Assembly (NCBI RefSeq): GCF_965363235.1
Contig: NC_134847.1
Span: forward strand, 69,910,935-69,974,934
From: Mytilus galloprovincialis
Taxonomy: Eukaryota
Direction: 5' to 3'
DNA length: 64,000 nucleotides
Shown here: positions 5,163-46,427 of the stretch, one piece after another
Position numbering within the stretch: position 1 is the first letter of the stretch
How the letters are laid out: each line of letters opens with the position of its first letter
Notes under the pieces: generated by a model
Databases searched by the model: none
Seen by the model: only the letters and a program-made list of their open reading frames with translations
Told to the model about the DNA's origin: nothing
Position numbers and translations under genes: made by a program

Positions 5163-5489
5163 ATGGCACCTGGTGATAACATGTTTATAGTTAAATATGT
5201 TTTGTTCTTTTTAAATGTGTTCAGTCCGGGTCAAACTGAAACAAACATTTTTCGCATTCACCCTGATCGGCTTGATTCTAAGCTGCAAGGATACATTTAT
5301 TTAACATTTGAGAAAATATCACCGAGGTTATGCTTTAACAAATGTATACGGAGGCCAAATTGCCACTCGTACAACTATAATAAAGCTGTGCTGACATGTG
5401 AACTAAATAACAAGCCAAAATCAGTATCTACTGAGGATTTCTATTTTCAGAAAGGATATGTATATGTTGAAATTGACCAGTACAGAGGG
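5163..5489 (+). CDS. Mucin-like gene exon 1: start codon, signal peptide and a PAN/apple-like 4-Cys module.
   Basis: ATG at 5163, with a second ATG at 5181. Hydrophobic MFIVKYVLFFLNVFS. RLCFNKCIRRPNCHSYNYNKAVLTCELN. Donor GTATGT at 5490, phase 0. Confidence 0.6.
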
Positions 5490-7199: not shown

Positions 7200-7293
7200 G
7201 ACTCGCTACTGGATCCATGTCATAGAAAGCCCTGCCAGTCAGCAGAGATTTGTGAAATAAAACTGGATGGAAACACATTTTGTGTAAAAGATA
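7200..7293 (+). CDS. Mucin-like gene exon 2: EGF-like Cys module (DPCHRKPCQSAEICEIKLDGNTFCVKDS).
   Basis: Acceptor tattttcag at 7199 and donor GTAAGT at 7294. Phase-0 entry matches exon 1. Phase-1 exit (a) joins AA of exon 3 to give Lys. Confidence 0.55.
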
Positions 7294-8726
7294 GTAAGTA
7301 CACAATTTAAGATAAAGGTATCTTTGATTATCTGAAACATTTGTAAAATTTCTGTTTTGTGCATGATCAAAAAGATTTTTTGTTGTAATGAATTTAGAAA
7401 AGGGAGGGAAAGGTTAGGTGGAATAATTCTTGCCTTGATTTTTTCATACTTAACAAAAGAGTTAATGTCATTTTTTTTTAAGAAACAATGATTATAAAGG
7501 CAATGATGCTATAGTATAAAAACAATACGTTTATCAAAATAATTAAGCGTCTAATGATGGAACGACTAGTAATTTTAATATTTATTGATAAAGTTTTATC
7601 ATTGTCATTTAATGATTATAACTTTTGACATAGTACTGTCTAACCTACAAATACTATGCCATCGGATATAATAAAAAAATACGAAACAATTCGAAAGTAA
7701 AAACCAACGGCATGATTTATTCAAAAACAACAAATAAAGCACAATGTATGTTTGATAGGAAAAAGCAAAAAAAAATAACGCCGTGTCTTTAAAAACATTA
7801 GGACGAAATTCCAATAACGTTGTTGCCTATAGCACTTCGTAAAAATAGCAGCATGCAACATAAAAATAATATGACAAAAAATTCCGAACTCCAAGGAAAA
7901 TTCAAGTCGGAAAGTCGCTTATCAAATGGCAAAATCAAAAGCTCAAACACATTAAAGGAATAGATAACATCTGTCATATTCTTGACTTGGCACATACATT
8001 TTCTTATGTAGAAAATGGTGGATTGAACATGGTTTTCTAGCTAACTTATCCTCTCTTTTGTATGGCAGTCGCTTAAAATTGCAATATATTGACAACAATG
8101 TGTGAACAAAACAAACAGACTTAAATGATAGAAATGTCAAAAACTGAGTAGTCATTCTTGTGTTAAAATTTAATTACTATAAAAACAAACAACTCTGTCA
8201 ATAAAATGGCCAATAGCACATCACTTCAGCCAAAATGGAAGACAAGAGTACAAAAAATGTTCATAGCACAATACAAAAATGACTGGATATTAGTATATGA
8301 ATACCGAGGCATGTCAAAAGAATTTCAGGGAAAATGGACTTAACAGTATAGGCTAAAGATATTCATATACAAGTAAAAGAACACGTCGCAAAACATTGAA
8401 ATTGAACGTTTAACAGTCGAGTACGATCCAGATTTGGCTGAAAATCAAACAAAAAGTATGATCAATGCCGATTTTTACATCTAGTTTGATTAATCTTGAG
8501 AGGAATAATTATGCAAAGTGTCTTCATGTAAATCAAGAAACATGTTCTCCGAAGTCACGTAAGATAGTTTCGGCCCTATTAAAATATTTTCTCAGCTCTT
8601 ATCTTTTACATGATATAGAATCAGATAACATGCCTATTGCCTGCAGCCCATTTATAAAAGGTTTTACTTAGAGCAACAACCAGTGAGAAAAGTATCATAT
8701 AGTGAAGTGTATTTACTCTTTTTCAG

Positions 8727-11700
8727 AACCTATTACCACTACAACAAAAGACAATACAAAATTTCTCAATACTGGTACTTCAACAACGCAAATGAAAACA
8801 CTAACATCAATTTCTCGAATAGCCACAACAACTGAAGCAGCTAAAACCGTCACGTTTGATACTACTGCTGAGATACCATTAACAACAACCAAAGGTACAA
8901 TTGTCTCTGAGACCCATAGATCAAAATCTTACAAAACAACTCCTACAACAGCAACAACTTTGCTAGAGACAACCGCTTATAAATCATCGGTCTCTCCAAT
9001 TACTCATGACCAACCAATGGGATTTGCAGACACTATAGCTAGCTCTATGGCGCCAACAAAAATATTAACATCCCTCTCTGACATTCAGACGATTGCCTCT
9101 TATACAGATGATACGACTGTGACAGACACATCAATTGATACAGATGCTTTCGCAGCGGCAGAAAACATCGAACTTATTTCTAGATATAGTACTACTGGCA
9201 TTACCACTAAGACTATTGACAAAACCGATGATATTCTATTGACAAACACAGAAGGTACTACTGTATCTGAGACTCATAGACGAACATCTAATGATGCAAA
9301 TCTTCAAGTAGCAACAACATTGCTAGACACAACAGCTGAGCAAGCTTCAGTCTCTCTAATTACTGACATTAGACTGATGGAAACTACAAACACTATAGTA
9401 AGCTCAGTAACCCCAATAAAAACGTCAGCATTCATTTCTGAGAGTCATACGATTGGCTTTTTAACGATTGATGAAGCTCCTGTCACAACTGCCAAAACCA
9501 TTGAACTTACATCTATATATAATACTTCTGGCACTACCGCTGACATTCAATTGACAAACACAGAAGGTACAACTGCCTCTGAGACACAAGGACCAACATT
9601 TGACGAAGCAACTTACACAGCAACATCAACATTGCTAGAGACAACTGCTGCTAAAGCTTCGAGCTCTCCGATTAATTATGATAAACAGAATGAAATGACA
9701 GACACTATAGCTAGATCAGCAACGCAAACGAAAACACCGGTGTTTATTTCTGAGAGTCAAACGATTGGCTTTACAACAGATGGTAGTACTTTGACAGACG
9801 CAATAACTGATAAAGATACTAGTACTGTCACATCCGCAGACACCATAAAACTTACTTCTATATCGACAACTGGTGGCACTACCACTAACACTGTTGGTAC
9901 TTCTGCCCAACAGCCGTTGATAAAAGCCGAAAGTACAACTGTCTTTGAAACTCATGGGTCAACATCTGACGAAGTAACTCGCACATCAGCATCAACGTTA
10001 CATAAAACAACCACTCAAGCTTCGAACTCTCCGATTACTAATGATAACCAGACGAAAACAATAGCAAGCACAACAAATCCTGGGAGTACACCGCCATTCA
10101 TTTCTGACACTCAGACTATAGGTACTAAAACAAATGATACGACTGGTACAGCCGCAATAACTGATGGAGATACTGTTACAGCCGCAGAAACCTTCCAACT
10201 TACCTCTTTATCTTCTAATACTGTCACTTCCACTAAGACTGTTGGTACTACTGCAGACACACCATTGACAAACACAGAAGGTACATTTACTGTCTCTAAG
10301 ACTCATAAATCACCGTCTGACGAAACCACTCAAAGAGCTGCAGCAAACTTGCTAGAGACAACCGCTGATCAATCTTCGGTCTCTCAGATTACTAATAACA
10401 AATTGACAGAAACGACGGAAACCATAGCTAGACCAGAAACGCCAACACAAACGTCTACATCCATATCTGACAGTATGGCGATCGGCTTTACAACAGATGA
10501 TACTACGGCAACAGACACAACCACTAGTGAAACAACTGTCACAGCCGCAAAAACTATCGAACCCACTTCTTCATCAAATATTGTTGGCACTACAACTACC
10601 ACTTTTGGTACTACCGCAGAAAAACGGTTGATAGACACCGACGGTACAACTACTGTTTCCGAGACTCATGAATCACCATTTGACGACACGGCTCACACAG
10701 CAGCAATATCATTAATAGAGACTACCGCTGATCAAGCTTCGAGTTCTCCGATTACTTATGATGAACCGAGGGAAATATCGAACACTATAACTCACTCAGC
10801 AACGCCAACAAAAACAGCAGCAACCATTTCTGAGAGTCAAACAATTGACTTTACAACAGATGGGAGCACTGTGACAGACGCAATACCTGATGAAGATGCT
10901 GTCACAGCCGCAGAAACCATCAAACGTACTTCTATATCGTATAATGTTGGCACTACCACTCACATTGTTGGTATTTCTGCCGAAAAGCCGTTGATAAATA
11001 CCGAAGGGACAACTTTCTTTGAGACTCATGGGTCGAAATTTGACGAAACAACTCGCACCGTAACAACAACCGCTCAGCAAGCTTCGTACTCTCCGCCTAC
11101 TTATACAAAACTGAGGGAGACGACAGAAACAGTGGTTGGCTCAAAAACCCAAACGAAAACACCGGCATTCATTTCTAACACTCAGCCAATTGGCTCTAGA
11201 ACAGATGATACGACTATGACAGACACAACAATTCGTGAAGTTTCTGTAACAGCTGCAAAAACCATCAAACTTTCCTCTATATCAAATAATATTGGTACTA
11301 CCGAAGAAACCCCATTGATAAACACCGAAGGTACAACTACTGTCTCTGAGACTCACGAACTAGCATCCGACGCAACAACTCACACAGCAGCAACAACCTT
11401 GCTAGAGACAACAATCGAACAAGCCCTGGTCTCTCCGACTACCAATAATAAACTGAGGGAAATGACGGAGACTATAGCTAGCACAGCAATGCCAATTAAA
11501 ACTCCAGCATTCATTTCTTCCAGTCTGACGATTGGCACTACGACCGATGAAACGACTTTGACAGCCACAACTATAAGGGAAGCTATTGTCACATCCGCAA
11601 AACCAATCGAACTTACCTCTATATCTTATGCTGTTGACACTACCACCAACACTATAAGTACTCCGTTGACAAACACCAAAGGTACAATTGTCTCTGAGAC

Positions 11701-14443
11701 TCAAGGACCAACATTTGACAAAAACACTCACACAGCAGCAATAACCTTGCTAGAAATAACTTCTGATCAAGTTTCGAATTCTCCGATTACCAATGACAAC
11801 ACGACGAAAACGTTGGATAGTTTAGCGAGCACAGTAAATACAGTGAAAACACCGGCATCCATTTCTGACACTGAGACTATTGGGACTAGCATAAATGATA
11901 CGACTTTGACAGACGCAACAACTGATGAAAATACTGTTACAACTACCAAACATATGTCTCTTAACATTGGCACTTCTACCAAGACTATTAGTACAACCGC
12001 AGAAATACAGTTGACAAACACAGAAAGTACATCTTTTGTCTCTGAGACTCGTGGATCACCACCTGACGAAACCACTCACACAGCAGCCACAAACTTGCTA
12101 GAGACAACCACTGATCAATCTACGGTCTCTTCGATTACTAATTACAAATGGACAAAAACGATGGAACCCTCAGCTAGACCAGAAACGCCAACAAAAACGT
12201 CTACGTCCATATCTGACTCTCAAACGATCGGCTTTGCAACAGAAGATACTACGGCGACAGACACAACAACTAGTAAAGCTATTGACACAGACCTTAATAC
12301 CATTCAACTTACCTCGATGTCTAATACTGCTGGCATTACCACTAAGATTGTTGGTAGTATTACCGATAAACATTTGACAAACACAGAAGGTACAACTACT
12401 CTTTCTGAGACTCATGAACCAACATCTGACGAAACATTTTTCACAGCAGCAGCAACCCTGCTAAAGACCACAGCTGATCAAACTTCGGTCTCTCCGATTA
12501 CTAATGATAAACCAAGTCAAACGACGGAAATCATATCTAGCTCAATAACGCCTACGTCCATATTTGACACTCGGACGATCGGCTTTACAACAGATGATAC
12601 TCCGATGACAGACACAACCAGTGAAGCTACTGTAACAGCTGCAAAAACCATCAAACTTACCTCGATGTCTAATACTGTTGGCACAACCACAAGGAACATT
12701 GGTACTACTAGTATCACCGATAATTATTTAAAAAACACACAAGGTACAACTTCTGTTTCTGAGATTCATGGACCAATATCTGACGAAACAACTTACACAG
12801 CAGCAATAACCCTGCTAAAGACCACCGCTGATCAAGCTTCGGTATCTCCGATTACTATTAATAAACCGACGGAAACGACGGAAACCATAGCTAGCTCGAA
12901 AACGCCAACAAAAACGTCTATATCCATATCTGGTACTCAAACGATCGGCTTTAAAACAGATGATACTACGATGATAGAAAAAACAAATAGTGACGCTACT
13001 GACAAATCCGCCAAAACCATCCAACTTACATTGATATATAATACTGTTGGCATAATTACAAGGAACATTGGTACTATCACCGATAATTATTTAACAAACA
13101 CACAAGGTACAACTACTGTTTCTGAGATTCATGGACCAATATCTGACGAAACAACTTACACAGCAGCAACAACCCTGCTAAAGACCACTGCTGATCAAGC
13201 TACGGTCTCTCCGATTACTAATGATAAACCGACGGAAACGACGGAAACCATAGCAAGCTCTAAAACGCCAACAAAATCATCTACATTCATATATGACACT
13301 CAAACGATCGGCTTTACAACATATGATACTACGATGACAGACAAAACAACTAGTGACGCTACTGACACACCCGCAAAAACCATCCAACTTACCTCAATAT
13401 CTAACACTATTGGCCTTACCACTAGGCCTATTGGTTCTATCAGCGAGAAACATGTAACAAACACTAAAGGTACAACTACTGTTTCTGAGATTCATGGACC
13501 AATATCTGACGAAACAACTTACACAGCAGCAACAACCCTGCTAAAGACCACTGCTGATCAAGCTACGGTCTCTCCGATTACTAATGATAAACCGACGGAA
13601 ACGACGGAAACCATAGCAAGCTCTAAAACGCCAACAAAATCATCTACATTCATATATGACACTCAAACGATCGGCTTTACAACATATGATACTACGATGA
13701 CAGACAAAACAACTAGTGACGCTACTGACACACCCGCAAAAACCATCCAACTTACCTCAATATCTAACACTATTGGCCTTACCACTAGGCCTATTGGTTC
13801 TATCAGCGAGAAACATGTAACAAACACTAAAGGTACAACTACTGTTTCTGAGATTCATGGACCAATATCTGACGAAACAACTTACACAGCAGCAACAACC
13901 CTGCTAAAGACCACTGCTGATCAAGCTACGGTCTCTCCGATTACTAATGATAAACCGACGGAAACGACGGAAACCATAGCAAGCTCTAAAACGCCAACAA
14001 AATCATCTACATTCATATATGACACTCAAACGATCGGCTTTACAACATATGATACTACGATGACAGACAAAACAACTAGTGACGCTACTGACACACCCGC
14101 AAAAACCATCCAACTTATCTCAATATCTAACACTATTGGCCTTACCACTAGGCCTATTGGTTCTATCAGCGAGAAACATGTAACAAACACTAAAGATACA
14201 ACTACTGTTTCTGAGGCTCATGGATCAATATCTGACGATTCAACTCACACAGCAGCAACAACTCTGCTAAAGACCACCGCTGATCAAGCTTCGGTCTCTC
14301 CGATTATTAATGATAAACCGACGGAAACGACGAAAACAATATCTAGCTCGGAAACGCCAACAAAAACGTCTACATCCATATCTGACACTCAAACGATCGG
14401 CTTTAAAACAGATGATACAACGATGATAGAAAAAAACAACTAG
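8727..14443 (+). CDS. Mucin-like gene exon 3: about nineteen tandem 121-aa (363-bp) Thr/Ser-rich repeats, ending at TAG 14441-14443.
   Basis: Acceptor ctctttttcag at 8726 and phase-1 entry. Long open frame of 8702..14443. Repeat unit ...TNTEGTTVSETHGPxSDETTYTAATTLLKTTADQASVSPITNDKPTETTETIASS.TPTK.S.SISDTQTIGFTTDDTT.TD.TTS.AT.TAAKTI.LTS.SN.VGTT. The last three units (13141-14229) are identical. Confidence 0.75.
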
Positions 14444-15650
14444 TGACGCTACTGACACATCCGCCAAAACCATCCAACTTACCTCAATATCTAATACTGT
14501 CGGCATAATTACAAGGAACATTGGTACTATCACAGATAATTATTTAACAAACACACAAGGTACAACTACTGTTTCTGAGATTCATGGACCAATATCTGAC
14601 GAAACAACTTACACAGCAGCAACAACCCTGCTAAAGACCACTGCTGATCAAGCTACGGTCTCTCTGATTACTAATGATAAACCGACGGAAACGACGGAAA
14701 CCATAGCAAGCTCGAAAACGCCAACACAAACATCTACATTCATATATGACAATCAAACGATCGGCTTTACAACATATGATACTACGATGACAGACAAAAC
14801 AACTAGTGACCCTACTGACACAACCGCAAAAACCATCTAACTAACCTCGATATCTAATAATGTTGGCTTAACCACTAGGACCATTGGTTCTATCAGCGAG
14901 AAACATGTAACAACCACTAAAGGTACAGCTACTGTTTCTGTGACTCTTGGACCAATATCTGACGAAACAACTTACACAGCAGCAACAACCCTGGTAAAGA
15001 CCACCGCTGGTCAAGCTTCGGTCTCTCCGATTACTAATGATAAACCATCGGAAATCATAGCTAGCTCGGAAACTCAAACAAAACCGTCTACATTCATATA
15101 TGACACTCCAACGATCGGCTTTACAACAGATGATACTACGATGACATACACAACAACTAGCGAAGCTACTGTAAAAGCTGAAAAAACATCCAACTTACCC
15201 CGATATCTAATACTGTTGGCATAACCCCAAGGACCATTGGTACTATCACTGATAATTATTTAACAATAAATCGACGGTAACGACAGAATTAATAGCTAGC
15301 TCGGAAACAGCAACAAAAATGTCTACATTCATAATTGACATTCAGACGATCAGATTTACAACAGATGATACTACGATTACAGACACAACAACTAGCGAAA
15401 CTAGTATAACAGCAGCAAAAACCATCTAACTTATCTCGATATTTAATACTACTGGCATAACCACTAGGACCATTGGTAATATTACCGATACACATTTGAC
15501 AAACACAGAAGGTACAACTACTGTTCCTCAGCCTCACGAACCAACATGTGACGAAACTACTTACACAGCAGCAACAACCCTGCTAAAGACCACCGTTGGT
15601 CATGCTTCGGTCTCTCCGAATACTAATGATAAACCGACCAAAAGACCAAC
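14444..15650 (+). pseudogene. Decayed continuation of the mucin repeat array (about 3.3 more units) with frameshifts and stops.
   Basis: The same 363-bp unit continues. The frame shifts by +1 after an A6 to A7 change at about 14430. An in-repeat TAA (accatcTaactaacc) lies near 14836. ORF 14940..15224 is a residual in-frame piece. Confidence 0.5.
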
Positions 15651-15655
15651 AAAGT

Positions 15656-16040
15656 GAAAAAGTATATTTAAACAAAACGCATTTGACTAAAAGGTCGAAT
15701 ATATATATACAAGTCTAAATTGAAAACTACGTTCAAACCTCTGATTGCGTTTGATAAAAACCGCAATTTTTATACGTGTGCATGTAAAACAAGTTTCGTT
15801 GTAGAAGGGTCTAAATACAGTATATATATATTAGTCAAATGCGTTTTGTTTAAATATACTTTTTTCACTTTTTTGGTCTTTTGGAAAATGTTGTTTTTGC
15901 TGTATTTAGACCATTCTACAACGAAATTTGTTTTACATGCACACGTATAAAAATTGCGGTTTTTATCCAACGGAATCATAGGTTTGAACGTAGTTTTCAA
16001 TTTAGACTCGTTTATATCAGGAACATATATATTAACCATG
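15656..16040. repeat. Compound palindromic hairpin element. Arms 15716-15850 and 15900-16036 are inverted; an inner pair 15656-15690 and 15832-15866 is also inverted.
   Basis: +ORF 15720..15950 and -ORF 15770..16039 give near-identical peptides (KTTFKP..DKNRNFYTCACKT), which is the signature of inverted arms. Confidence 0.6.
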
Positions 16041-16379: not shown

Positions 16380-18527
16380 ACATGCATATTAAGCTAGGAT
16401 CCCTTTTAACACAGTCTCGTGAGTCTATTGAACTGAAGACAGGGGACTCTCGTTTAAAAGAACTTGATAAAAAGCTAGAAGATGCTGAAAAAAATAAATG
16501 TTTCAATGATCTAGATTTTCCAATAAAGGACTCAGAAATATATTCTGCTATTGGTAGATTAAAAATGGATAAAGCTCCTGGATTAGATCATATTAGCAAC
16601 AACATTTTTAAAAGAGGCCAAATTTTCTTAACAAAATGTTTAATTAAATTGTTTAATACCAGTTTATTATATGGTTTATATCCTTAATCATGGGCGGAAA
16701 GATATATAAAAAAATGCATAAAGGTGGCGATAAAGATGAACAAAGTAACTATAGAGGCCTGACAATCACCAGCTGTGTTGGTAAATTATTCAATTGCATA
16801 TTAAACTCTAGATTGGATAATATTTTAATAAAGCATAATAGATGACTCTCAGATTGGTTTCACAAAAAAGGCTAGAACATCTGACCATATATTTATATTA
16901 AAATGCATTATTGATAAATACTGTTCACATATGATATTAAAGGATGGTAGAGTGTTTGTCTGCTTTGTTGATTTAAGAAAGGCTTTTGACACTGTAATTC
17001 ATACAGGATTAAGACTTAAACTCTTAGAAATAGGGGTTGGTACTAAATTTTATAATGTTATTAAGAATATGTACTCTGTAAGTAAATCTTGTATAAAAAC
17101 AAGTAACACTGCTCGCATTGAAATGTTTGATAGTAAATTGGGAGTTAAGCAAGGCGACAACCTAAGTTCTAACTTGTTCAAAATATTTATTAATGACCTT
17201 CCTTCATTACTGAAACAAACATCAGATCCAATTATACTAAACTCTCGGCATATACATTGTTTGATGTATGCAGATGATATTTTTCTGCTCTCTTCCTCAT
17301 CGCATGGTCTTCAACAAAAACTAGATAATTTAGACATGTTAGATAAGTTTTGCAAACAGTGGTGTCTTACTGTAAATTTATCTGAAACCAAAGTACTTAT
17401 ATTCAATAAGGCAGGCAGACATCTCAAATATAATTTCAAATACAATGGAAAAATTGTTGAATGTGTAACCGAATGTAAATATCTTAGCATTACTTTTTGT
17501 TCATCTGGATCTTTCTCCAGACCTATGCTCAAAATGAACTTTATCAGAAGGGTCTAAAGGCTTATTTTAAACTGTGCAAGGAATTTATTTCTCACTGTCC
17601 TTCACCTTAAATCTCATTACATGTATTCGATCATTCTATTATGCCAATATTATTATATGGTTGTGAAACTTTGGGTTATTTTAATCCCTTTACAACAAGA
17701 TTGAAAAAAAAACCCTGATTTGTCCTTTGATGAAATTTATAAAAGAGTTAAATGTGGAAAAATGCATGTTAAATTATGTAAATTTGTTTTGGTTGTGGGA
17801 AAAAGAGTACACATTTTGCCTCCTTGTCATAACTTGGCAGATTAACCACACATTTTAATATCGTCAGTTCAATGCTTAAATATTGGCACTGTTTAGAAAA
17901 TTTACATAATCAATTTCCAATTCTAAAAGATGTCTATTTAACTTCCATAGAGTTGTACGAAAATAAACATCCTTCTTGGTATGGCTCTGTTTATATACAG
18001 AAAAACAGAATTTTTGATAACCATACTGACTTAACATGCTTAGAGTCAATGAAAACAAATAGTTTTAAGAAGACATGTAAAAAAATATATGAAAATTCAT
18101 TATATTAATCTTTGGCAAAAAAAAAAAAAAAACCATCATTATCAGACGGCAAACTGTGTACATACTTCAAGTTTAAACAAAATTTTGGATTTGAAAATTA
18201 TTTGAATATATTATAAAAGATTTTGGGCAGAGGAGAATTTTCACCAGATTCAGAATATCACCTCATAGACGTCAAAATGTTCAAATAGAGTTGGGAAGAT
18301 GTCAAGGTATTATCAGGCAAAATAGATTGTGTGTTCATTGCACATCTGGCAAGGTAGAAGATGAGATCCATTTTTTACTAACATGTACAAAGTATAAAGT
18401 TGAACGTTATGATCTTATAAATGCTATTTGTCCTAATTTTACCCAATTACAAAATCCTGAAAAATTTATTTGGATGATGAATAATGAAGATCATGAAATA
18501 TATGTAAAATTTGCTGTCGTATAGCCA
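16380..18527 (+). mobile_element. 5'-truncated, frameshifted non-LTR retrotransposon (LINE ORF2: RT domains, thumb, C-terminal CCHC). CR1/L2-like.
   Basis: KAPGLDHISNNIFK. YRGLTITSCVGKLF (other frame). FVDLRKAFDTV. MYADDIFLLS. SIMPILLYGCETLG. C-terminal RLCVHCTSGKVEDEIHFLLTCTKYKVER (18291..18524). No endonuclease region. Confidence 0.7.
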
Positions 18528-25157: not shown

Positions 25158-26310
25158 CTTTTTATACGACTGCAAAAAATGTTTGAGGTCGTATATTGGT
25201 ATGACGTTGGCACATTGGTTTTCGCACTATCACTTTAGTTTTTGTAAATAGAAATCTATGAAAATTAAACGCAAGGTTTGTGACCACTAAAGGAAGGTTG
25301 GGATTGATTTTGGGAGTTTTGGTCCCAACAGTTTAGGAATTAGGGGCCAAAAAAGGGCCCAAATAAGCATTTTTCTTGGTTTTCGCACAATAACTTTAGT
25401 AAAAGTAAATAGAAATCTATGAAATTTAAACACAAGGTTTATGAACACAAAAGGAAGGTTGGAATTGATTTGGGAGTTTTGGTCTCAACAGTTTAGGAAT
25501 TAGGGGCCAAAAAGGGGCCCAAATAAGCATTTTTCTTGGTTTTGGCACCATAACTTTAGTATGAGTAAATAGAAATCTATGAAATTTAAACACCATAAAA
25601 GGAAGGTTGAGATTGATTTTGGGAGTTTTAGTCCCCACAGTTTAAGAATTAGGGGCCCAAAGGGTCCAAAATTAAACTTAGTTTGATTTCATCAAAAATG
25701 GAATAATTGGGGTTCTTTGATATGCCGAATCTAACTGTGTATGTAGATTCTTAATTTTTGGTCCTGTTTTCAAATTCGTCTACAATAAGGTCCAAGGGTC
25801 CAAAATTAAACTTAGTTTGATTTTAACAAAAATTGAATTCTTGGGGTTCTTTGATATGCTGAATTTAAACATGTACTTAGATTTTTGATTATGGGCCCAG
25901 TTTTCAAGTTGGTCCAAATCGTGGTCCAAAATTAAACTTTGTTTGATATCAACAAAAATTGAAACCTTGGGGTTCTTTGATATGCTGAATCTAAACATGT
26001 ATTTAGATTTTTGATTATAGGCCCAGTTTTCAAGTTGGTTCAAATCGGGGTCCAAAATTAAACTTTGTTTTATTTCAACAAAAATTGAATATATGGGGTT
26101 CTTTGATATATGCTGAATCTAACCATGCATTTAGAATTATGATATTTGGGCCCGGTTATCAAATTGGTCCACATTGAGGTCTAAAGGGTCCAAAATTGAA
26201 CTTTATTTGATTTCATCAAAAATTGAATTCTTTGGGTTCTTTGATATGCTGAATCTAACCATGTAATTAGATTTTGGATATTGGACCATAATAGGTAAAT
26301 GTCCAATTTA
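25158..26310 (+). mobile_element. Satellite-bearing non-autonomous composite element, copy 1. This is the 5' part; its 3' tail resumes at 33647-33756 after the nested Ngaro.
   Basis: Starts ctttttatacgacYgcaaaaa...ggtcgtata (9-bp hairpin) as in copy 2 at 50643. Contains satellite I (units of about 150-171 bp, 25215-25640) and satellite II (units of about 126-138 bp, 25662-26290). Both satellites carry GGGCCC. Confidence 0.6.
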
Positions 26311-27320
26311 TACAAAATTCTCAGAAATGATCCTGAATATGTTTAATTGTCATTTGTTCCATGTTTGCAATGTGTTCTGATTCTTTGTAAATATTTTTTA
26401 GGGTAAATTTATTTCTGTTTGATGTGATGCTGTTCTAATCTTATTTTAATTGTCTTTTGTTTATACTGTATCTTTTCTGTGGTAATCTGTTATGTAATAG
26501 GGAAATGTGTGTTAACACCTGAGCAAACATCCAACCTCATATCTTCTTGCAAATTCTTTGACCTGACAATTAAACCATCCTGATCTAACTTTCGGTCCTA
26601 TATTTTAATTTTGCTAATAAATGTGTCAGTGAACAAAATCCTCAAAGTCACACATAATGAGTTCATATTAATTTCATAGTAATTTAAATAATTTAATTAC
26701 CCCTGATTTCTTTCAGAACACACTGTTTGAACTCATGATATGTAAAATTAAGGATTTAGTGCTCACATTATTATCAACCTAATTTTTCCTGCTATCACCT
26801 ATCTTGTAAATAAACTCCTGGGAAATACTGTGTAGCAATGCCATTGGTATCCATGTTTGAATTAAACATAAATCATAATTTAATTGCAACTTTTATTTTA
26901 TATATATACATCACGATTATAATTTGGCCCTTGGGGAAACTACTCAGCTAAAAAATTTAATTTTTTGCTCCATGCCTAAACCAAGAGCCTAGCTATGTGC
27001 ATACTGAAAAGTAGCAAAGTATAGACCCCTGGCTTGACATCACACCAATCCAATTGGAACGATGGTTCAAAATAAATGCATGAGGCTATCAGGAAGCCTA
27101 TGAGGCTATCATTCCTAGAGGCTATCATGCCTATGAGGCTATGAGGAAGCCTATAATGAGACAATGAGGAAGCCTGTAAGGAGGCTATGAGGAAGCCTAG
27201 TAGTGTTGATGTTGAATTGGTGTTGGAATGAATTTGTATGAAATTTGACAGTTTATCCCCAGAAATTCTTGGGGGATGAGTGAAATTTTTGAAACAACCA
27301 GTGATAAAATTTCATAAATG
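26311..27320 (-). repeat. Ngaro terminal direct repeat, copy at the element 3' terminus. Contains ATGAGGCTATCA/GAGGAAGCCT subrepeats at 27087-27200.
   Basis: Identical, as read, to 27841-28856. Confidence 0.8.
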
Positions 27321-27840: not shown

Positions 27841-28856
27841 ATACAAAATTCTCAGAAATGATCCTGAATATGTTTAATTGTCATTTGTTCCATGTTTGCA
27901 ATGTGTTCTGATTCTTTGTAAATATTTTTTAGGGTAAATTTATTTCTGTTTGATGTGATGCTGTTCTAATCTTATTTTAATTGTCTTTTGTTTATACTGT
28001 ATCTTTTCTGTGGTAATCTGTTATGTAATAGGGAAATGTGTGTTAACACCTGAGCAAACATCCAACCTCATATCTTCTTGCAAATTCTTTGACCTGACAA
28101 TTAAACCATCCTGATCTAACTTTCGGTCCTATATTTTAATTTTGCTAATAAATGTGTCAGTGAACAAAATCCTCAAAGTCACACATAATGAGTTCATATT
28201 AATTTCATAGTAATTTAAATAATTTAATTACCCCTGATTTCTTTCAGAACACACTGTTTGAACTCATGATATGTAAAATTAAGGATTTAGTGCTCACATT
28301 ATTATCAACCTAATTTTTCCTGCTATCACCTATCTTGTAAATAAACTCCTGGGAAATACTGTGTAGCAATGCCATTGGTATCCATGTTTGAATTAAACAT
28401 AAATCATAATTTAATTGCAACTTTTATTTTATATATATACATCACGATTATAATTTGGCCCTTGGGGAAACTACTCAGCTAAAAAATTTAATTTTTTGCT
28501 CCATGCCTAAACCAAGAGCCTAGCTATGTGCATACTGAAAAGTAGCAAAGTATAGACCCCTGGCTTGACATCACACCAATCCAATTGGAACGATGGTTCA
28601 AAATAAATGCATGAGGCTATCAGGAAGCCTATGAGGCTATCATTCCTAGAGGCTATCATGCCTATGAGGCTATGAGGAAGCCTATAATGAGACAATGAGG
28701 AAGCCTGTAAGGAGGCTATGAGGAAGCCTAGTAGTGTTGATGTTGAATTGGTGTTGGAATGAATTTGTATGAAATTTGACAGTTTATCCCCAGAAATTCT
28801 TGGGGGATGAGTGAAATTTTTGAAACAACCAGTGATAAAATTTCATAAATGGCCAT
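27841..28856 (-). repeat. Ngaro internal copy of the 1.01-kb repeat.
   Basis: Identical to 26311-27320. Duplicate ORFs 26976..27164 and 28507..28695 give the same peptide. Confidence 0.8.
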
Positions 28857-29079: not shown

Positions 29080-30093
29080 TTAAATTCTACCTAACCTACT
29101 TTGAGCTGTTTTAATAGATGCTGGCGTTACCCTAATGTATCTGATGTAACTATCTGAAGTCCAGCGCCCTAATGTTTTTATCAAGTGATCTTCTATTTTT
29201 GCCTTACCAGCACTTGTAGCTGCCCCAATTCTAAAACTATGACCATTATAATGACTTGAGTTGAAACCACATATATCCAGTACTTTTTTGATACAAGTGA
29301 TGAAATATTGTCTCTCCAAAGGTTTCTTATCAATGGTTATGAAAAGTGGATCAGTTTGATTAGTAGGAGAAAATTCTTTCCTTATTTGTATATATTCTAA
29401 CAAAATTGTGTAAGGGCAGATAAGCTGACCTAATTTATGTAGCTGTAGATTTATGCCTTTTCTAAAAGGATCTGTTTTTGATTGTTTTAATTTCAAAACT
29501 ACTAAGTCTGAGTGAAATACAACATCTTCAATACATAAATTTATATGTGGATCAAACTGTGAGGCCTTTGACACTGTAAACTCGCCACATCTCAAAAATC
29601 CATAAAATGCGACAATGCATGCAGTTCTTAACATTAAATCAGTAAACTTGGAACAAAAACCTTTTCTCAAACAATTTACAATTTTTTCCAAAATTTCGAA
29701 AGTTATTGGTAATCTTATGTGATTTTTTGTTTTTTGCAGTCTTTTTACAGAATTTAAAACATAATCAAGTCTGATTAAAGGTGTATTATGAGCAGATTGT
29801 AAGGGATCATTTTGATTACCCTGTACATATTTATACCTAATTCCACATAAATATAATTTAATGGTAGAGTATTGTAAACTCAGAACTTTAAAGCAGTGGG
29901 CTATGAAATAAATTAAAATATCCTCAGAAATAGGAGGTAAATTAGAAAATTGAAAACCATTCAATAACATAAAAGTCTCAAATTTTCTGAACCCAGTATC
30001 ATAAACAGTTCTTGTAGTATTAGCAATAGCACTGTTCCAAAGTTCATTCACTGCTTGATTTAGGACCACATTACATCTGAGCTGCTTGGGCAC
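29080..30093 (-). CDS. Ngaro tyrosine recombinase (phage-integrase-type YR), 337 aa.
   Basis: Box I FLRCGEF. Box II GHSFRIGAATSA. LGRWTSDSYIRYIR carries the Tyr nucleophile, so the R-H-R-Y set is present. Overlaps the RT ORF by 34 nt. Confidence 0.85.
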   Translation of the reverse strand: MPKQLRCNVVLNQAVNELWNSAIANTTRTVYDTGFRKFETFMLLNGFQFSNLPPISEDILIYFIAHCFKVLSLQYSTIKLYLCGIRYKYVQGNQNDPLQSAHNTPLIRLDYVLNSVKRLQKTKNHIRLPITFEILEKIVNCLRKGFCSKFTDLMLRTACIVAFYGFLRCGEFTVSKASQFDPHINLCIEDVVFHSDLVVLKLKQSKTDPFRKGINLQLHKLGQLICPYTILLEYIQIRKEFSPTNQTDPLFITIDKKPLERQYFITCIKKVLDICGFNSSHYNGHSFRIGAATSAGKAKIEDHLIKTLGRWTSDSYIRYIRVTPASIKTAQSRLGRI

Positions 30094-31553
30094 TTCATTG
30101 GATGTTGTGCTGCACTGGGAGCTAGTTTGCGGAATCTGTCTATCTGTAAACGAGATAGAGCATCACTTATATCATTCTGATATCCTGGAACATGTTTGGC
30201 ACTAAAATGAAAGTTGTATTTACAAGCACACCATGTAAGTTTCCTCATTAATTTCATTATTTGTAAACACTTTGAACGGCCCTTTTTTACTATAGCCACT
30301 GTAGCTTCATTGTCACACCAGAAAAGAATGCGTTTTGTTGTCCACTGTGAGCCCCACAGTATTGCGGATACTACAATGGGGTATAATTCAAGAAAAGCCA
30401 TTGAAAATGTTTTGTCAGGATAAGCAATGTTTGATGGCCATGATGAATAAAACCATTCTCCCTTGAAATATCCACCAAATCCTTTTGTTGATGAGGCATC
30501 AGTAAAAAGTTCCATATCATAACTTGAGTAAAATTGTCTACTGTAAAACATGTTCACACCATTCCAGCTGCTCAGAAAAAGTAACCAAAATTCTAGGTCA
30601 ACACGGCATTCCTTATCTAATTTAACATAATGATGCAAATCATTGACAGTAGTGGACAGCCCTATGAGGTATGAAACAAAGGATCTACCAGGTAAAATGA
30701 CACGTGAAGCAAAGTTTAAGTGACCCAAAAGCTGCAACAATTCCCTTTTTGTACAAGATTTTTTCCTGCATAATTTTTTGATGAATTCACAAATGCGATC
30801 AACTTTATTAAGAGGTAGTCGAGCTTCCATTTTTTCAGAATCTAGAATAATACCCAAATATTCTAAACATTTTACAGGACCTATTGTCTTATGTTTTGCT
30901 ATAGGAATGTTCAGTTTTTTGAAAATCATCATCATTATAGCCATAGTCCTCTCACCATCAGCATCTGGTGGATCTATGGTTAGGAAATCATCCAATAAAT
31001 GCAAAATGCTATTAACTTTGTAATTGTTTTCTGCAATATGACACAAAGCTTGGGATAAATGGTCAAAAATTTTGGGGCTTGAACGACATCCAAAAGTTAA
31101 ACGGACATAAAAATAATACATTTTTTCCCATTTTATGCAGAAAAGAGGCCACTGACTTGGTACAATTGGACAATTTTTGAACGCGTCGGATATGTCGAAC
31201 TTGCAAAGCCAGGAATTTCTTCCAAATTTCAAAATAACATCAATGGCGTCATCTATTCTAACATAAGACATTGAGCAATCCTGTTTGTCAATAAGATCAT
31301 TAATACTTAGATGTTTATCATCATTATGTGGTGAAGATAAGTCCAATATTAAACGCTTTTTACCAGAATATTTCCCTTCTGCAATACCAATTGGGCTTAC
31401 CCTATAATTTTGAAAAGGGGGATCCTTAAAAGGCCCATACAAGAAACCTTTAAAAACTTCTTTCTCTATCAAATCAGAAACCACATCTGGTTGTGTCCTA
31501 GCAGATAAACTATTCCTACATTCTTTTGTAGGTAAATCTGTTGTAGATACCAT
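30060..31553 (-). CDS. Ngaro reverse transcriptase plus RNase H, 497 aa, with no methyltransferase domain.
   Basis: RT blocks LILDLS, KFDISDAFKNCPI, LTFGCRSSPKIF, HLLDDFL (YxDD equivalent). RNase H FTDASSTKGFGGYF...WCDNEATV. The ORF is too short for a DIRS-type methyltransferase, so Ngaro rather than DIRS. Confidence 0.85.
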   Translation of the reverse strand: MVSTTDLPTKECRNSLSARTQPDVVSDLIEKEVFKGFLYGPFKDPPFQNYRVSPIGIAEGKYSGKKRLILDLSSPHNDDKHLSINDLIDKQDCSMSYVRIDDAIDVILKFGRNSWLCKFDISDAFKNCPIVPSQWPLFCIKWEKMYYFYVRLTFGCRSSPKIFDHLSQALCHIAENNYKVNSILHLLDDFLTIDPPDADGERTMAIMMMIFKKLNIPIAKHKTIGPVKCLEYLGIILDSEKMEARLPLNKVDRICEFIKKLCRKKSCTKRELLQLLGHLNFASRVILPGRSFVSYLIGLSTTVNDLHHYVKLDKECRVDLEFWLLFLSSWNGVNMFYSRQFYSSYDMELFTDASSTKGFGGYFKGEWFYSSWPSNIAYPDKTFSMAFLELYPIVVSAILWGSQWTTKRILFWCDNEATVAIVKKGRSKCLQIMKLMRKLTWCACKYNFHFSAKHVPGYQNDISDALSRLQIDRFRKLAPSAAQHPMKCPSSSDVMWS

Positions 31554-31682
31554 AGTATCAAATCCTTTCTCTAAGCCATTGCATAAATAGTTAACAGATT
31601 TTTTGTCAGGATGAGAAATTAATTCTTTTGCAAGTATAATAACATTAATTGGAGTAGTAGCCAGATATGGGAAATCATGTAG

Positions 31683-33083
31683 TCATTGACCTTGCTTATT
31701 TGTTGTTATTTTCTCAAACTTTTGTGAAGAGTTTACTGTATGTGGCTTAGATTGTACTTCAGTCCTACCTTGAGAGGGGAAAACTTTTTGACAAGATAAT
31801 AGGGTATGACCAGCGACTTTACATCTGCTACAGATATGTGAAAAATGACAAAAACTCCTGGTACAACCCCTACTGGTATTAAAATTATTGCAAACCTCCC
31901 GCCCAGAATGATAAATTTTCTTTCTACCTAACTTATCAGTAGTGTCTACCTGCCTTGATACTTTATCTGGGTAGTCTTGATATGTCATGGAGGTTTGCAT
32001 AGGACAAAAAGCAGTAGTGTGATCAACCAAATTACAAATTTTGCAAACATTTACATTCCCACCAGCAACTATTAATGAAAGAAGATCCCTATCTCTTTTG
32101 CTCCAGTCAACCTTAATCCTTCTCTCCCTTAAAAGAGCTGCTGATTTTGCAGAAAACAATTTATGGTAATCATAAAATCTGTCACCATAAAAATTACTAA
32201 TATCTATAATCTCATCTTCATAAGCATCTAGCTCTGCTCTACGGTCAGGGTAAACTGATGACATGACCCTCTTAAACTTGCCAAATGCCTTAATGAATTC
32301 TTGAATTGTGAGTTTTCTATTCAGACGGGGATCTGGCTTCCCAGAAATATTTAACTCTAACCCATTAGCTGCAACAGAGTGAATTTGGGGAGTTTCATAG
32401 TTTGGGATAAGCAGAGATGCCAAATTAACATCCTTACCGTCAATGATTTGCTTTTGAATAGAAGGAGATATAATGTCCACATTAGAATATTCATCCGAAC
32501 GCACTCCACATGAAACATTTCCAACTTGTGGTCCTGAGATGAAAGATGCATGCTCTTGTGTATTTCCATGTAAAACAGTATTATTTCCTCTGTTAGAAAT
32601 TTCACTCCTATTCCCAATCCCTGCATGGTTGTACCACTGTTGAAGGTTGAATTCGCGATCTCTACCTGTGTCATGAGTACAATTGTCTCTGTAAATTAGC
32701 TGTTTAAAGGTCTCTTGAAGTCCTTCAAAACACTGAGCTATGTTCCTGTCTGTTCCACCATTTGAAACACTGCTTCTGTGTTGATGCACTGATTCTGCTA
32801 AGGTAATTGGAAGAGTGCTCTCTGGTGAGGAATCTGTGTTAATCTCATCACTAATGGTGTCTGTCTGTTGTGTCTCTAAAGATGTTACTCCATCAAAACA
32901 ATTCTCTAAATAAAGTTGTTTTAACACTTGTTTTGACATACCAGAAGGTGTTCTTATTCCCTTTTTGTTAAGTTCTTCTTTTAGTTTGTTTATTGTCCAA
33001 TTAGAAGGGTTATTAGAATCCCATTGGGTCTCATACGGAGAACTCCTAGTTTTCCTTCGAACACCTTTTCCTCTGCCAGACAT
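31683..33083 (-). CDS. Ngaro Gag-like protein, 466 aa, with an N-terminal SAP-like motif and two CCHC zinc knuckles.
   Basis: INKLKEELNKKGIRTPSGMSKQVLKQLYL (SAP-like). CKICNLVDHTTAFC and CSRCKVAGHTLLSC (C-x2-C-x4-H-x4-C). Basic N-terminus. Confidence 0.75.
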   Translation of the reverse strand: MSGRGKGVRRKTRSSPYETQWDSNNPSNWTINKLKEELNKKGIRTPSGMSKQVLKQLYLENCFDGVTSLETQQTDTISDEINTDSSPESTLPITLAESVHQHRSSVSNGGTDRNIAQCFEGLQETFKQLIYRDNCTHDTGRDREFNLQQWYNHAGIGNRSEISNRGNNTVLHGNTQEHASFISGPQVGNVSCGVRSDEYSNVDIISPSIQKQIIDGKDVNLASLLIPNYETPQIHSVAANGLELNISGKPDPRLNRKLTIQEFIKAFGKFKRVMSSVYPDRRAELDAYEDEIIDISNFYGDRFYDYHKLFSAKSAALLRERRIKVDWSKRDRDLLSLIVAGGNVNVCKICNLVDHTTAFCPMQTSMTYQDYPDKVSRQVDTTDKLGRKKIYHSGREVCNNFNTSRGCTRSFCHFSHICSRCKVAGHTLLSCQKVFPSQGRTEVQSKPHTVNSSQKFEKITTNKQGQ

Positions 33084-33756: not shown

Positions 33757-34163
33757 ATAAGAATGGACATAAAGGCAAGTTTAATTATTGTGATTCCAGG
33801 AAAATATTTATACAGAGTTGTTTACTTGATATCAGAATGAAAGTTTCAATTAATGCGATACAAACCCACTCCCAGTCACATTATTCAGATGAATGTGAAC
33901 CTCACAAGAATTTTTGAATTCACTGTATACAGGACTATATATATCATGTATCTATATGTATCCCCAAATTTAAATAATGATTTCACTTGACTATTAACGA
34001 ATATATTTACAGAGTACACATGTTGTATGTAATGACCTTTTTATGAGCTATTAACATTTGACACAAATTTCAAAACCTCCCTAATGTCTACATGTCTTCC
34101 CTAAAGATCGATCATTATCATATTTGTTGTCTTGTTTATTATATGTTTCTGGTTTATTTACAG

Positions 34164-34362
34164 AGTACACATGTTGTATGTAATGACCCAGAAAAGGCAG
34201 ATATCAGTTACAAATGTAAGATGGCCTCAAAGTATGGATTACCAGTAGTGTCACTTGATTATATCCATGACTGTGTAGACCAGGGGAGACTACTCAATAC
34301 AGATAATTACATCCTTGTAGGAAAAACAAAGTCACAAGAATTCAGCTCAGGAAAGATAACAG
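34164..34362 (+). CDS. PARP4: PARP4-like exon 2: C-terminal half of BRCT.
   Basis: STHVVCNDPEKADISYKCKMASKYGLPVVSLDYIHDCVDQGRLLNTDNYILVGK. Acceptor ttatttacag, donor GTAAAA, phase-1 exit. Confidence 0.65.
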
Positions 34363-34865
34363 GTAAAAGGAAAAGGAAAAATAAACAAACTTATTTCATA
34401 AATGGAAAAGGGGTATCTACCAATATCTCATGTTTGGCCTACTGTTTGATTGAAGTTTTAAAACTTGAAATTAAAATTAGAAATAATTTTTCAATATTCT
34501 AAAGATTTCCAAAGTACAAATCTCTGAATACAATATGTATGACATTAGTTTTTTCAGACTTCAAAAATTGTTCAGTAGGTCTGAACGTACTTTAGTGAAA
34601 AATATTTTACATTACGGTTTTAAAATTATGTTATGTCCATTTATTGTAGAAGCGTAAGTGTATTGTTACACAAGCAAGGGCATTATCTGGGTCCTCATAA
34701 TGGACACATTCTCCATTTATATCAATATGTATTTGTCTTTACAACACAACATTTACCTGGCTTACAGATGAGGTAAAAATTAGCAGAAATGTAATAATTG
34801 TTAAATATTAAAATATTTAGACATGATGAATATATAAAAGAGGAATGATTTGTTTTGATTTGCAG

Positions 34866-44900: not shown

Positions 44901-46200
44901 AATGATATGGGCTATCCATCCATGACACAAGCACATTCCTAATAGACACTACAAATGATATGGGCTATCCATCCATGACACAAGCACATTCCTAATAGAC
45001 ACTACAAATGATATGGGCTATCCATCCATGACACAAGTACATTCCTAATAGACAATACAAATGATATGGGCTATCCATCCATGACACAAGCACATTCCTA
45101 ATAGACAATACAAATGATATGGAGTATCCATCCATGACACAAGCACATTCCTAATAGACAATACAAATGATATGGGCTATCCATCCATGACACAAGCACA
45201 TTCCTAATAGACAATACAAATGATATGGGCTATCCATCCATGACACAAGCACATTCCTAATAGACAATACAAATGATATGGGCTATCCATCCATGACACA
45301 AGCACATTCCTAATAGACACTACAAATGATATGGGCTATCCATCCATGACAAAAGTACATTCCTAATAGACACTACAAATGATATGGAGTATCCATCCAT
45401 GACACAAGCACATTCCTAATAGACACTACAAATGATATGGGCTATCCATCCATGACACAAGTACATTCCTAATAGACAATACAAATGATATGGAGTATCC
45501 ATCCATGACACAAGCACATTCCTAATAGACACTACAAATGATATGGAGTATCCATCCATGACACAAGCACATTCCTAATAGACACTACAAATGATATGGA
45601 GTATCCATCCATGACACAAGCACATTCCTAATAGACACTACAAATGATATGGGCTATCCATCCATGACACAAGCACATTCCTAATAGACACTACAAATGA
45701 TATGGGCTATCCATCCATGACACAAGCACATTCCTAATAGACACTACAAATGATATGGGCTATCCATCCATGACACAAGCACATTCCTAATAGACACTAC
45801 AAATGATATGGGCTATCCATCCATGACACAAGCACATTCCTAATAGACAATACAAATGATATGGGCTATCCATCCATGACACAAGCACATTCCTAATAGA
45901 CACTACAAATGATATGGGCTATCCATCCATGACAAAAGTACATTCCTAATAGACACTACAAAGGATATGGAGTATCCATCCATGACAAAAGTACATTCCT
46001 AATAGACACTACAAATGATATGGAGTATCCATCCATGACACAAGCACATTCCTAATAGACAATACAAATGATATGGAGTATCCATCCATGACACAAGCAC
46101 ATTCCTAATAGACACTACAAATGATATGGGCTATCCATCCATGACACAAGCACATTCCTAATAGACAATACAAATGATATGGGCTATCCATCCATGACAC
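41930..46200. repeat. Intronic satellite: about 80 tandem copies of a 53-bp unit (ACAAATGATATGGGCTATCCATCCATGACACAAGCACATTCCTAATAGACACT).
   Basis: The 53-bp period was verified at 42061, 42114 and 42167. Variants segregate (gcac/gtac, cact/caat, gggc/ggag). Lies inside PARP4-like intron 11. Confidence 0.85.
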
Positions 46201-46427
46201 AAAATCAGTAGGTGCACACCAAAAAAGCACAAGAAGCAAACAGTGCATTTATAGTTGTTCTTCTTCTAGGGGTAACAGTTAGGCCTACAATGCTGAGCAA
46301 AGAAACTCCCACCCTTCTGCAATTCCAAGACAACCACCAGCACCGGTCCTAGTAAAGTTTTGTGTACATACCACAGTATATTGTACAATTTAATTATATG
46401 TTACAATTTTTATTTTAATTTATACAG

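Follow-up and report, generated by a model that had tools for sequence, protein, structure and literature searches.

The question raised by this locus is why the reading frame of a long, repeat-rich mussel gene stops where it does, inside an array of repeats that continues beyond the stop codon. In a first-pass annotation of the window (the whole 64,000-nucleotide stretch of DNA that was analysed), the end of a mucin ORF was attributed to a single A6 to A7 change, and two alternatives were put forward, a real and recent 3' truncation or a homopolymer sequencing error hiding a longer protein. The sequence reads as that annotation proposed: positions 14423-14443, in the frame of the ORF, are ATG ATA GAA AAA AAC AAC TAG, whereas the sister unit U12 has ATG ATA GAA AAA ACA AAT AGT GAC. 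The frame-preserving A6 is the state of U12 in the window and of at least seven sister units in other haplotypes. The A6 context that had been quoted for the paralogous unit U12 was right, but its 'gatag' string begins at 12973 and not at 12970. The ORF that includes the TAG spans 8702-14443 (1913 codons), and its predicted C-terminal peptide is …TDDTTMIEKNN. As set out below, this is very probably a secreted mucin-like VNTR gene in which slippage from A6 to A7 has truncated the reading frame, the allele being old, the downstream repeat a 3' relic and the truncation part of a stepwise erosion.

Coordinates of the features of the locus, in positions of the window.
Feature	Position	Strand	Description
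Exon 1	5181..5489	+	Start codon, hydrophobic signal-like N-terminus, PAN/Apple domain; GT donor (GTATGT) at 5490
Exon 2	7200..7293	+	Cys-rich (EGF-like) segment DSLLDPCHRKPCQSAEICEIKLDGNTFCVKD; AG acceptor, GTAAGT donor
Exon 3, coding part	8727..14443	+	Thr/Ser-rich repeat domain (~5.7 kb), ends at the TAG made by A7
Tandem array	8882..15638	+	~20 units of ~363 bp (121 aa); TRF, unit map, unit identity matrix
A6 run, sister unit U12 (MIEKTN)	12978..12983	+	Frame-preserving state
U13-U15	13094..14182	+	Three near-identical units, 99.2-99.7%
A7 homopolymer, U16	14430..14436	+	+1 relative to A6
TAG stop	14441..14443	+	In frame through A7; C-terminus -MIEKNN
Relic of former coding repeat	14444..15654	+	Rest of U16, U17, U18, partial U19 and U20; three-frame translation
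TAA, relic frame	14838..14840	+	CAA to TAA; private to the window haplotype
A-run, frameshift relative to the repeat	15181..15186	+	1-bp loss; four length states among five haplotypes
~130-bp deletion junction (15265/15266)	15265..15270	+	Length 1 mod 3; common to all five haplotypes
Second TAA, relic frame	15427..15429	+	Common to all five haplotypes
TGA, repeat frame at array edge	15655..15657	+	…NDKPTKRPTK*; presumed ancestral stop

The locus is a three-exon Mytilus gene of the M. edulis species complex, encoding a PAN/Apple plus Thr/Ser-rich mucin-like protein that is predicted to be secreted; its CDS of 6120 nt yields 2039 aa. The N-terminus, MFIVKYVLFFLNVFSPG, is hydrophobic and signal-like as judged by eye from the translation, and an ATG at 5163 is a second possible start for exon 1. 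This exon shows 91% identity over aa 1-103 (tblastn, query P0001), is identical in usage to the M. galloprovincialis model VDH98076.1 and has a PAN_1 (PF00024) match of 26.9 bits, above the curated Pfam cutoff of 21.4. Exon 2 carries no substitutions relative to M. edulis OY782965.1 or ENA ERZ6864376 and its junctions give the annotated proteins P0006, P0007 and P0009 exactly; the splice junctions of the window also agree with those of the annotated orthologues VDH98076.1 and CAG2205454.1. Exon 3 is Thr/Ser-rich and Pro-poor (T 28.3%, S 10.8%, P only 3.9%), and the term mucin-like is used here as a description of composition only. When the first 200 aa and two repeat units were searched against Pfam, PAN_1 and PAN_4 were the only domains found and VWD, C8, CK and SEA domains were absent; beyond the searched N-terminus the protein consists of repeat.

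The 363-bp repeat falls inside one large exon, exon 3. Its units are old and diverged from U1 to U11, and are followed by the A-type unit U12, the B-type units U13-U15 and the A-type unit U16 with the A7, while U17, U18 and the partial units U19 and U20 form the 3' end of the array. Among the haplotypes compared, the U13-U15 expansion is found in the window haplotype only, and the nearest relative of these three units is U17 (95%), which now lies in the relic.

Three-frame translation showed that the repeat persists in the +1 frame past the stop and carries further lesions, in agreement with the first-pass annotation. The stop codon that had been placed near 14836 is the TAA at 14838-14840, and the indels placed near 15190 and 15280 correspond to the 1-bp deficit in the A-run and to the junction of the ~130-bp deletion, respectively. 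A 9-bp in-frame deletion near 15046, the second TAA and the TGA at the edge of the array can now be added to that list, and beyond the TGA the DNA is AT-rich and non-repetitive. The relic, which aligns one-to-one with four other haplotypes, thus holds two stops and three frame breaks in 1.2 kb, and among its indels are some that vary between haplotypes and are not multiples of three. Relative to the M. edulis haplotype OY782965.1 it has diverged by 2.3% with an omega of ~0.9-1.2, compared with 0.64-0.73 (up to 1.1) for exon 3 upstream, a difference that leans in the expected direction but is based on few substitutions. The stops, the frame breaks, the indels and an omega of ~1 together indicate that the relic is unconstrained, and it is now untranslated, as either 3' UTR or intergenic sequence. 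The deletion junction spells AATAAA, a possible poly(A) signal, and another AATAAA is located at 16126. The frame-breaking lesions common to the five haplotypes (the 15181 frameshift, the 130-bp deletion and the TAA at 15427) are unevenly placed, with three in the distal 474 nt and none in the proximal 737 nt, and in the four haplotypes other than the window the proximal part is open for 262-267 codons. A 146-aa 'Sgs-3-like' protein annotated by RefSeq in M. edulis lies wholly within the relic and is broken in the window by the TAA at 14838.

In long-read assemblies the errors that most often remain are homopolymer indels, and it is on this ground that the A7 might be a sequencing or assembly error, with a true A6 and a longer protein. 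Five haplotypes were compared, namely the window, L001 (M. edulis OY782965.1), L002 (ENA ERZ6864376), L006 (M. galloprovincialis UYJE01000975.1) and L007 (M. edulis GCA_905397895.1). The A7 and the stop are identical at the orthologous unit in all four further, independent assemblies, whose near-neutral sites are 2.6-3.1% diverged from the window (the five are 0.5-3.1% apart) and which represent different individuals and species. Yet A6 is called elsewhere in the same 24-nt context, at 8161, 8530 and 8899 in L001, at 6529 in L002 and at 13826 and 14935 in L006, and the published models VDH98076.1 and XP_071133558.1 likewise end in -MIEKNN. L007 is a noisy assembly that has other frameshifts besides its erratic calls of A5, A6 and A7; it is less reliable, lends weaker support and would by itself speak for an error. 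Nor would an A6 restore much: the proposal that the ORF would then continue to the next lesion is only half apt as a criterion, as the window would still stop at the substitution-derived TAA at 14838, 138 codons from the ATG at 14423, and in the other haplotypes the reading frame would run for 262-267 codons before closing in a frameshifted tail. As the A7 is shared by assemblies that call A6 correctly in sister units, a sequencing error is effectively excluded, and we regard it as highly improbable. On these comparisons of assembled sequence the A7 truncation is a real, inherited variant and its allele is old, having passed to each of the five haplotypes sampled from the complex; its being common to haplotypes this far apart, across M. 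edulis and M. galloprovincialis, is at odds with the description of the truncation as recent. Further A7 stops are present upstream in L001 (7791) and L006 (14195 and 14565), which may reflect assembly error or gene conversion instead of separate slippage events. A scan of JGI metagenomes returned no matches to the A6/A7 site.

Two further explanations accept the A7 but read it differently. It has to be asked whether the run is a recoding site, at which A AAA AAC makes the polymerase slip or the ribosome change frame, giving a longer second isoform that extends into the downstream units. The heptamer GA[A AAA AAC] indeed stands in the zero-frame X XXY YYZ register just 5' of the stop, and the A7 is invariant in five of five haplotypes, compared with the four length states of the A-run at 15181. 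However, the repeat frame would have to be reached by a +1 and not a -1 shift, and the stretch by which the protein would be extended is interrupted by lineage-specific stops and frameshifts, with an omega of ~1. A programmed -1 frameshift at A AAA AAC was rejected: it enters the wrong frame, adds only 23 unrelated residues and is accompanied by no stable, stimulatory RNA structure 5-9 nt downstream (MFE -9.8 kcal/mol, z = +0.31 relative to shuffled sequences). We consider recoding to be as improbable as a sequencing error. A somewhat smaller degree of doubt, still leaving it improbable, attaches to the idea that the locus in its entirety is a dead pseudogene in which the A7 is one lesion among many, which would fit the near-intronic rate of change in exon 3 (2.0% versus 2.2%), the omega values of up to 1.1 in this exon and the extra upstream stops in the reference alleles from M. 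edulis and M. galloprovincialis. Against this, no disabling lesion is found in the 2039 spliced codons and the GT/AG splice sites are intact. The repeat frame of exon 3 has a single stop, the terminal one, in 1905 codons, while the other two frames have 98 and 200, and upstream of the TAG there is neither a premature stop nor a frameshift; had the coding part (5717 nt) gathered lesions as densely as the relic (5 in 1212 nt), the Poisson probability of finding it free of them would be 6e-11. Moreover, all indels in 8727-12730 are multiples of three in the three haplotypes compared, and exons 1 and 2 have one substitution in 357 nt where 8 would be expected from the intron rate (P = 0.003). The conservation of exons 1 and 2, combined with a lesion-free exon 3 in which only multiples of three are gained or lost, argues that the gene is functional.

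The true orthologues were found by an exhaustive HMMER search and had been missed by a word-indexed protein search. They are VDH98076.1 (Apple domain-containing, M. galloprovincialis), XP_071133558.1 (mucin-22-like, M. edulis) and XP_063404517.1 (mucin-3A-like, M. trossulus), which share the exon structure and a syntenic locus upstream of a PARP4-like gene but differ from the window in the number of units and in the unit that bears the A7. Among the alleles of the edulis complex the window allele is the longest, with 2039 aa compared with 1682 aa for VDH98076.1. The M. trossulus orthologue, by contrast, is without A-type units and terminates at a nonsense codon, which is followed by ~270 nt of repeat with two more stops. 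It was rejected as an outgroup for the order of lesions, given that its introns are only ~80% identical, its A-type units are absent and its 3' flank is unrelated. M. coruscus P0004 (L003) and M. galloprovincialis P0001 (L004) are paralogous loci and uninformative on the A7 site. A search of the literature returned nothing specific on this Mytilus protein.

We hypothesize that a substitution in the A-type subfamily, GAC AAA ACA to GAA AAA ACA, made the A6 run and that replication slippage in U16 later extended it to A7, which would have shifted the frame by +1 so that the TAG lands two codons on. With the stop in the last exon and no conserved C-terminal domain to be lost, a shortened protein with the end -MIEKNN would be expected to be both produced and tolerated; the last-exon position also suggests that the transcript would escape nonsense-mediated decay. 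Sequence 3' of the stop would then drift neutrally. The distal relic, however, seems to have lost its coding capacity earlier, through the 130-bp deletion, the frameshift at 15181 and the TAA at 15427, lesions that, judged from their density and not from an outgroup, probably predate the A7. The placement of these lesions, together with the upstream A7 stops and the M. trossulus stop with its repeat tail, suggests that the coding array shortens stepwise from its 3' end, with the A7 as the latest step and decay having begun before it; if this is so, the upstream A7 stops in the reference sequences for M. edulis and M. galloprovincialis would mark where the process goes next. The first-pass annotation was thus right to describe the downstream units as decaying, but on our reading it was not the A7 that started the decay. 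It is also conceivable, though unlikely, that the A7-bearing unit is a movable 'terminator unit', displaced along the array by recurrent slippage or by unequal crossing-over and gene conversion. If so, haplotypes would differ widely in the number of repeats, the position of the A7 would set the length of the protein, from ~1550 to 2040 aa, with all forms ending in -MIEKNN, and the invariance of the A7 beside a hypervariable A-run 750 bp downstream might reflect selection keeping the stop.

For annotation, the stop at 14441-14443 is genuine and the gene model should close at it; the repeat that continues past it for 1.2 kb should neither be 'corrected' into the ORF nor named as a separate gene. 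Biologically, the locus would offer a clean and datable case of a last-exon coding VNTR that shrinks where no C-terminal domain follows, with a sequence of events that leads from a substitution to a slippage-prone run, a slip and a stop, after which the tail decays while the upstream units keep expanding and contracting. We see in it nothing out of the ordinary, a gene rich in repeats that is eroding from its 3' end, and it opens no new question.

The A7 truncation is of the same kind as the homopolymer frameshifts in the coding repeats of human MUC1 and CEL. As described for MUC1 in ADTKD-MUC1, an extra base in a 6-7-nt homopolymer of one coding VNTR unit likewise shifts the downstream frame; there, however, the shifted frame remains open and its product is a toxic neoprotein, the variant being both rare and pathogenic, whereas the mussel gene meets a stop two codons on and its A7 is carried by every sampled haplotype, in at least two named species. 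The nearest mechanistic analogue is CEL (BSDL), for which a one-base insertion in the exon-11 VNTR has been described that gives a truncated enzyme with the C-terminus PRAAHG instead of PAVIRF (PMC5352176). In both genes the coding VNTR lies in the last exon, and the gain of one base within it leads to a premature stop and a shorter protein with an altered C-terminal peptide. CEL differs in being a human enzyme gene whose variant was described from tumour cells and pre-neoplastic tissue (PMC5352176), while the mussel A7 would be a germline allele found across mussel species, with a decaying relic of the former coding repeat still visible downstream.

The window (GC ~31%) is Mytilus DNA with M. 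edulis and M. galloprovincialis as its nearest database matches, and its ORF at 8702-14443 is the final exon of a gene with three exons. Joined, the exons give a 6120-nt CDS of 2039 aa with the terminal stop as its sole stop, and the exon junctions exactly match the annotation of two orthologues, VDH98076.1 and CAG2205454.1. Exon 1 matches the Pfam family PAN_1 with 26.9 bits (cutoff 21.4). Exon 3 is built of tandem ~363-bp (121-aa) units, numbered U1-U20. Its coding frame of 1905 codons contains a single stop, against 98 and 200 in the two alternative frames. The repeat domain (T 28.3%, S 10.8%, P 3.9%) is mucin-like by composition only.

The end of this reading frame had been attributed in the first-pass annotation to an extra A in an A6 run, followed by repeat units decaying in the +1 frame. 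All of the features described there were found in the sequence, with the approximate positions off by 2-14 bases: unit 16, an A-type unit, reads ATG ATA GAA AAA AAC AAC TAG and carries A7, its sister unit U12 carries A6 and keeps the frame, and repeat in the +1 frame with lesions continues over 1.2 kb past the TAG (the relic, 14444-15654). Older unit types have GAC AAA ACA ACT at this position; therefore, a C-to-A substitution made the A6 run and A7 is the derived state.

The same annotation had allowed for either a recent truncation or a homopolymer sequencing error. The orthologous locus was compared in four further assemblies, namely M. edulis OY782965.1 (L001), ENA ERZ6864376 (L002), M. 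galloprovincialis UYJE01000975.1 (L006) and M. edulis GCA_905397895.1 (L007). The five sequences can be aligned one-to-one over the stretch from unit 16 to past the old TGA, and each has A7 followed by an in-frame TAG, which is retained in L007 in the context CAAATAG. At sister units with identical 24-nt context these assemblies show A6, so the run length is not systematically miscalled. Over the same segment the window diverges by 2.6-3.1% from the other four, which differ by 0.5-1.4% among themselves, indicating five distinct haplotypes and not one assembly copied. The new C-terminus, -MIEKNN, is also found in the independent annotations VDH98076.1 and XP_071133558.1. Judged from these assembly alignments, a sequencing error is effectively excluded, and the truncation is real. 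A programmed -1 frameshift is a further rival, with A AAA AAC standing in register at the A7 site. However, it would yield just 23 unrelated codons and go in the wrong direction, the repeat frame requiring +1, and no RNA structure was found downstream of A AAA AAC (z = +0.31).

That the locus is simply a dead gene conflicts with the data, since 2039 codons are intact and exons 1-2 are conserved, differing between the window and M. edulis by one substitution in 357 nt, where the intron rate (70 substitutions in 3122 nt) predicts eight (P = 0.003). Exon 3 has diverged by 2.0%, close to the intron rate, with omega at 0.64-0.73 (window versus others), yet its frame is preserved and every indel in 8727-12730 among three haplotypes is a multiple of 3. 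The relic has diverged by 2.3% with omega ~0.9-1.2, and its indels include some whose length is not divisible by 3. Were lesions as dense as in the relic, a lesion-free 5.7-kb coding part would have a probability of 6e-11, and therefore selection keeps the frame open up to the A7 stop but not past it.

The truncation is older than the split of the five haplotypes, as all share A7 and the stop, and hence it is not recent as had been proposed. It is younger than the origin of the A-type units, none of which is present in the syntenic M. trossulus orthologue XP_063404517.1. All five haplotypes carry the 9-bp and ~130-bp deletions, the TAA at 15427 and the TGA at 15655, and the TAA at 14838 is confined to the window. 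At 15181 the A-run occurs in four lengths among the five, whereas A7 at the stop is invariant, which may be due to chance, to run length or to weak selection for retaining the stop. All three shared frame-breaking lesions fall in the relic's last 474 nt and none in the proximal 737 nt, where, with A6 in place of A7, the frame of the other four haplotypes would run on for 262-267 codons. The last units are the most diverged (~80-85% identity, versus 95% for U17). The most economical reading of these sequence patterns would be stepwise erosion from the 3' end, with the distal lesions earlier and A7 later. The truncation and the downstream decay stand as first described, but A7 was probably not the first lesion.

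Erosion seems to be still ongoing, judging from other alleles. Five units upstream, a second A7 stop is found in the M. edulis reference (L001 7791), and the M. galloprovincialis reference has two additional A7 + TAG sites (L006 14195 and 14565). These upstream sites occupy A-type units, different ones in the two species, and the annotated proteins concerned are shorter and still end in -MIEKNN; the sites could stem from repeated slippage, from gene conversion or from errors of assembly. In M. trossulus the orthologue (2404 aa) terminates at a TAA in frame, beyond which ~270 nt of same-frame repeat hold two more stops (L005 13213-13480), a case of independent 3' erosion of the same gene. Copy number between U11 and U16 varies by haplotype (window 13094-14182, L001 7551-9396, L002 6289-6657): the window carries one A-type unit and three almost identical units of B type, M. 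edulis five A-type units, each of 369 bp, and the ENA contig one. The nearest relative of the window's B units is relic unit U17 (95%), past the stop.

The demonstrated steps of the mechanism are the substitution behind the A-run, the +1 slip, the stop and the drift of the tail. Stops in the last exon spare an mRNA exon-junction-dependent nonsense-mediated decay, so the A7 mRNA should escape it, and with no C-terminal domain to lose the truncation would be nearly neutral. The relic would then act as 3' UTR, with candidate poly(A) signals AATAAA at 15265 and 16126. The first of these (15265-15270) is spelled by the deletion junction itself, is conserved across the five haplotypes and may serve as the poly(A) signal of the truncated gene.

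Features of the window
Feature	Position	Strand	Remarks
Exon 1	5181-5489		hydrophobic N-terminus, PAN/Apple domain
Exon 2	7200-7293		Cys-rich segment
Exon 3	start 8727		polypyrimidine-AG acceptor directly before
A7 run, unit 16	14430-14436
TAG stop	14441-14443
Relic TAA	14838-14840
Relic 9-bp in-frame deletion	near 15046
Relic 1-bp deficit in A-run	15181-15186
Relic ~130-bp deletion junction	15265/15266
Relic second TAA	15427-15429
TGA at array edge	15655-15657
Reverse-transcriptase fragment	16931-17557	+	RVT_1 3e-20; ~1.3 kb past repeat array end
160-, 126-, 136-bp tandem repeats	25215-26279 and 51836-52099		common motif …GGGTCCAAAATTAAAC…TTGATTTCAACAAAAATTGAATAC…
DIRS-like retroelement	29080-33083	-
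BRCT-domain ORF	34092-34502	+	BRCT_2 2e-5, BRCT 3.4e-4, both slightly under Pfam cutoffs
53-bp satellite	41935-46202		~80 copies, 96% identity

In the DIRS-like element, a 466-aa ORF is gag-like, a 497-aa one encodes a reverse transcriptase (RVT_1 3.6e-9) and a 337-aa one a tyrosine recombinase (Phage_integrase 1e-4, under the Pfam cutoff). Next to it, tandem repeats of 16 bp and 23 bp form two identical blocks 1.5 kb apart (27096-27199 and 28627-28730), which could be the terminal repeats of a mobile element. The 53-bp satellite has a strong strand skew (C > G, A > T), as in the mucin array, and is non-coding because 53 is not a multiple of 3. The 160-, 126- and 136-bp repeats resemble a family of dispersed satellites or MITEs. 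The BRCT ORF is probably part of a PARP4-like gene (BRCT-PARP-VIT-VWA); in both M. edulis and M. trossulus such a gene is found downstream of the mucin locus, and in the window the gap between the two has been widened by transposon insertions. At the paralogous PAN-domain mucin-like locus of M. galloprovincialis, the repeat array (L004 16395-20601) is broken into four ORFs in different frames, and the first break is where the annotated protein, P0001, ends; each break reflects either a genuine frameshift or a mistake in assembly.

The value of the A7 truncation lies chiefly in annotating the gene correctly. The RefSeq M. edulis 'salivary glue protein Sgs-3-like' (P0002, 146 aa) has its ORF wholly within the relic, from the end of U17 to U18 (L001 10001-10441, window ~14790-15240); the ORF ends in the frameshifted tail, is broken in the window by the TAA at 14838 and so is very likely a spurious gene model. 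As an event, A7 is of the same type as the one-base duplication in a C7 run of the human MUC1 VNTR (PMC7248079, PMC9039432). A closer likeness is the C insertion in the CEL/BSDL exon-11 VNTR, where the stop comes prematurely and the C-terminal peptide is a new one (PMC5352176). Unlike both, the mussel A7 is a germline allele shared between species, its stop is almost immediate and the locus retains a readable, decaying relic.
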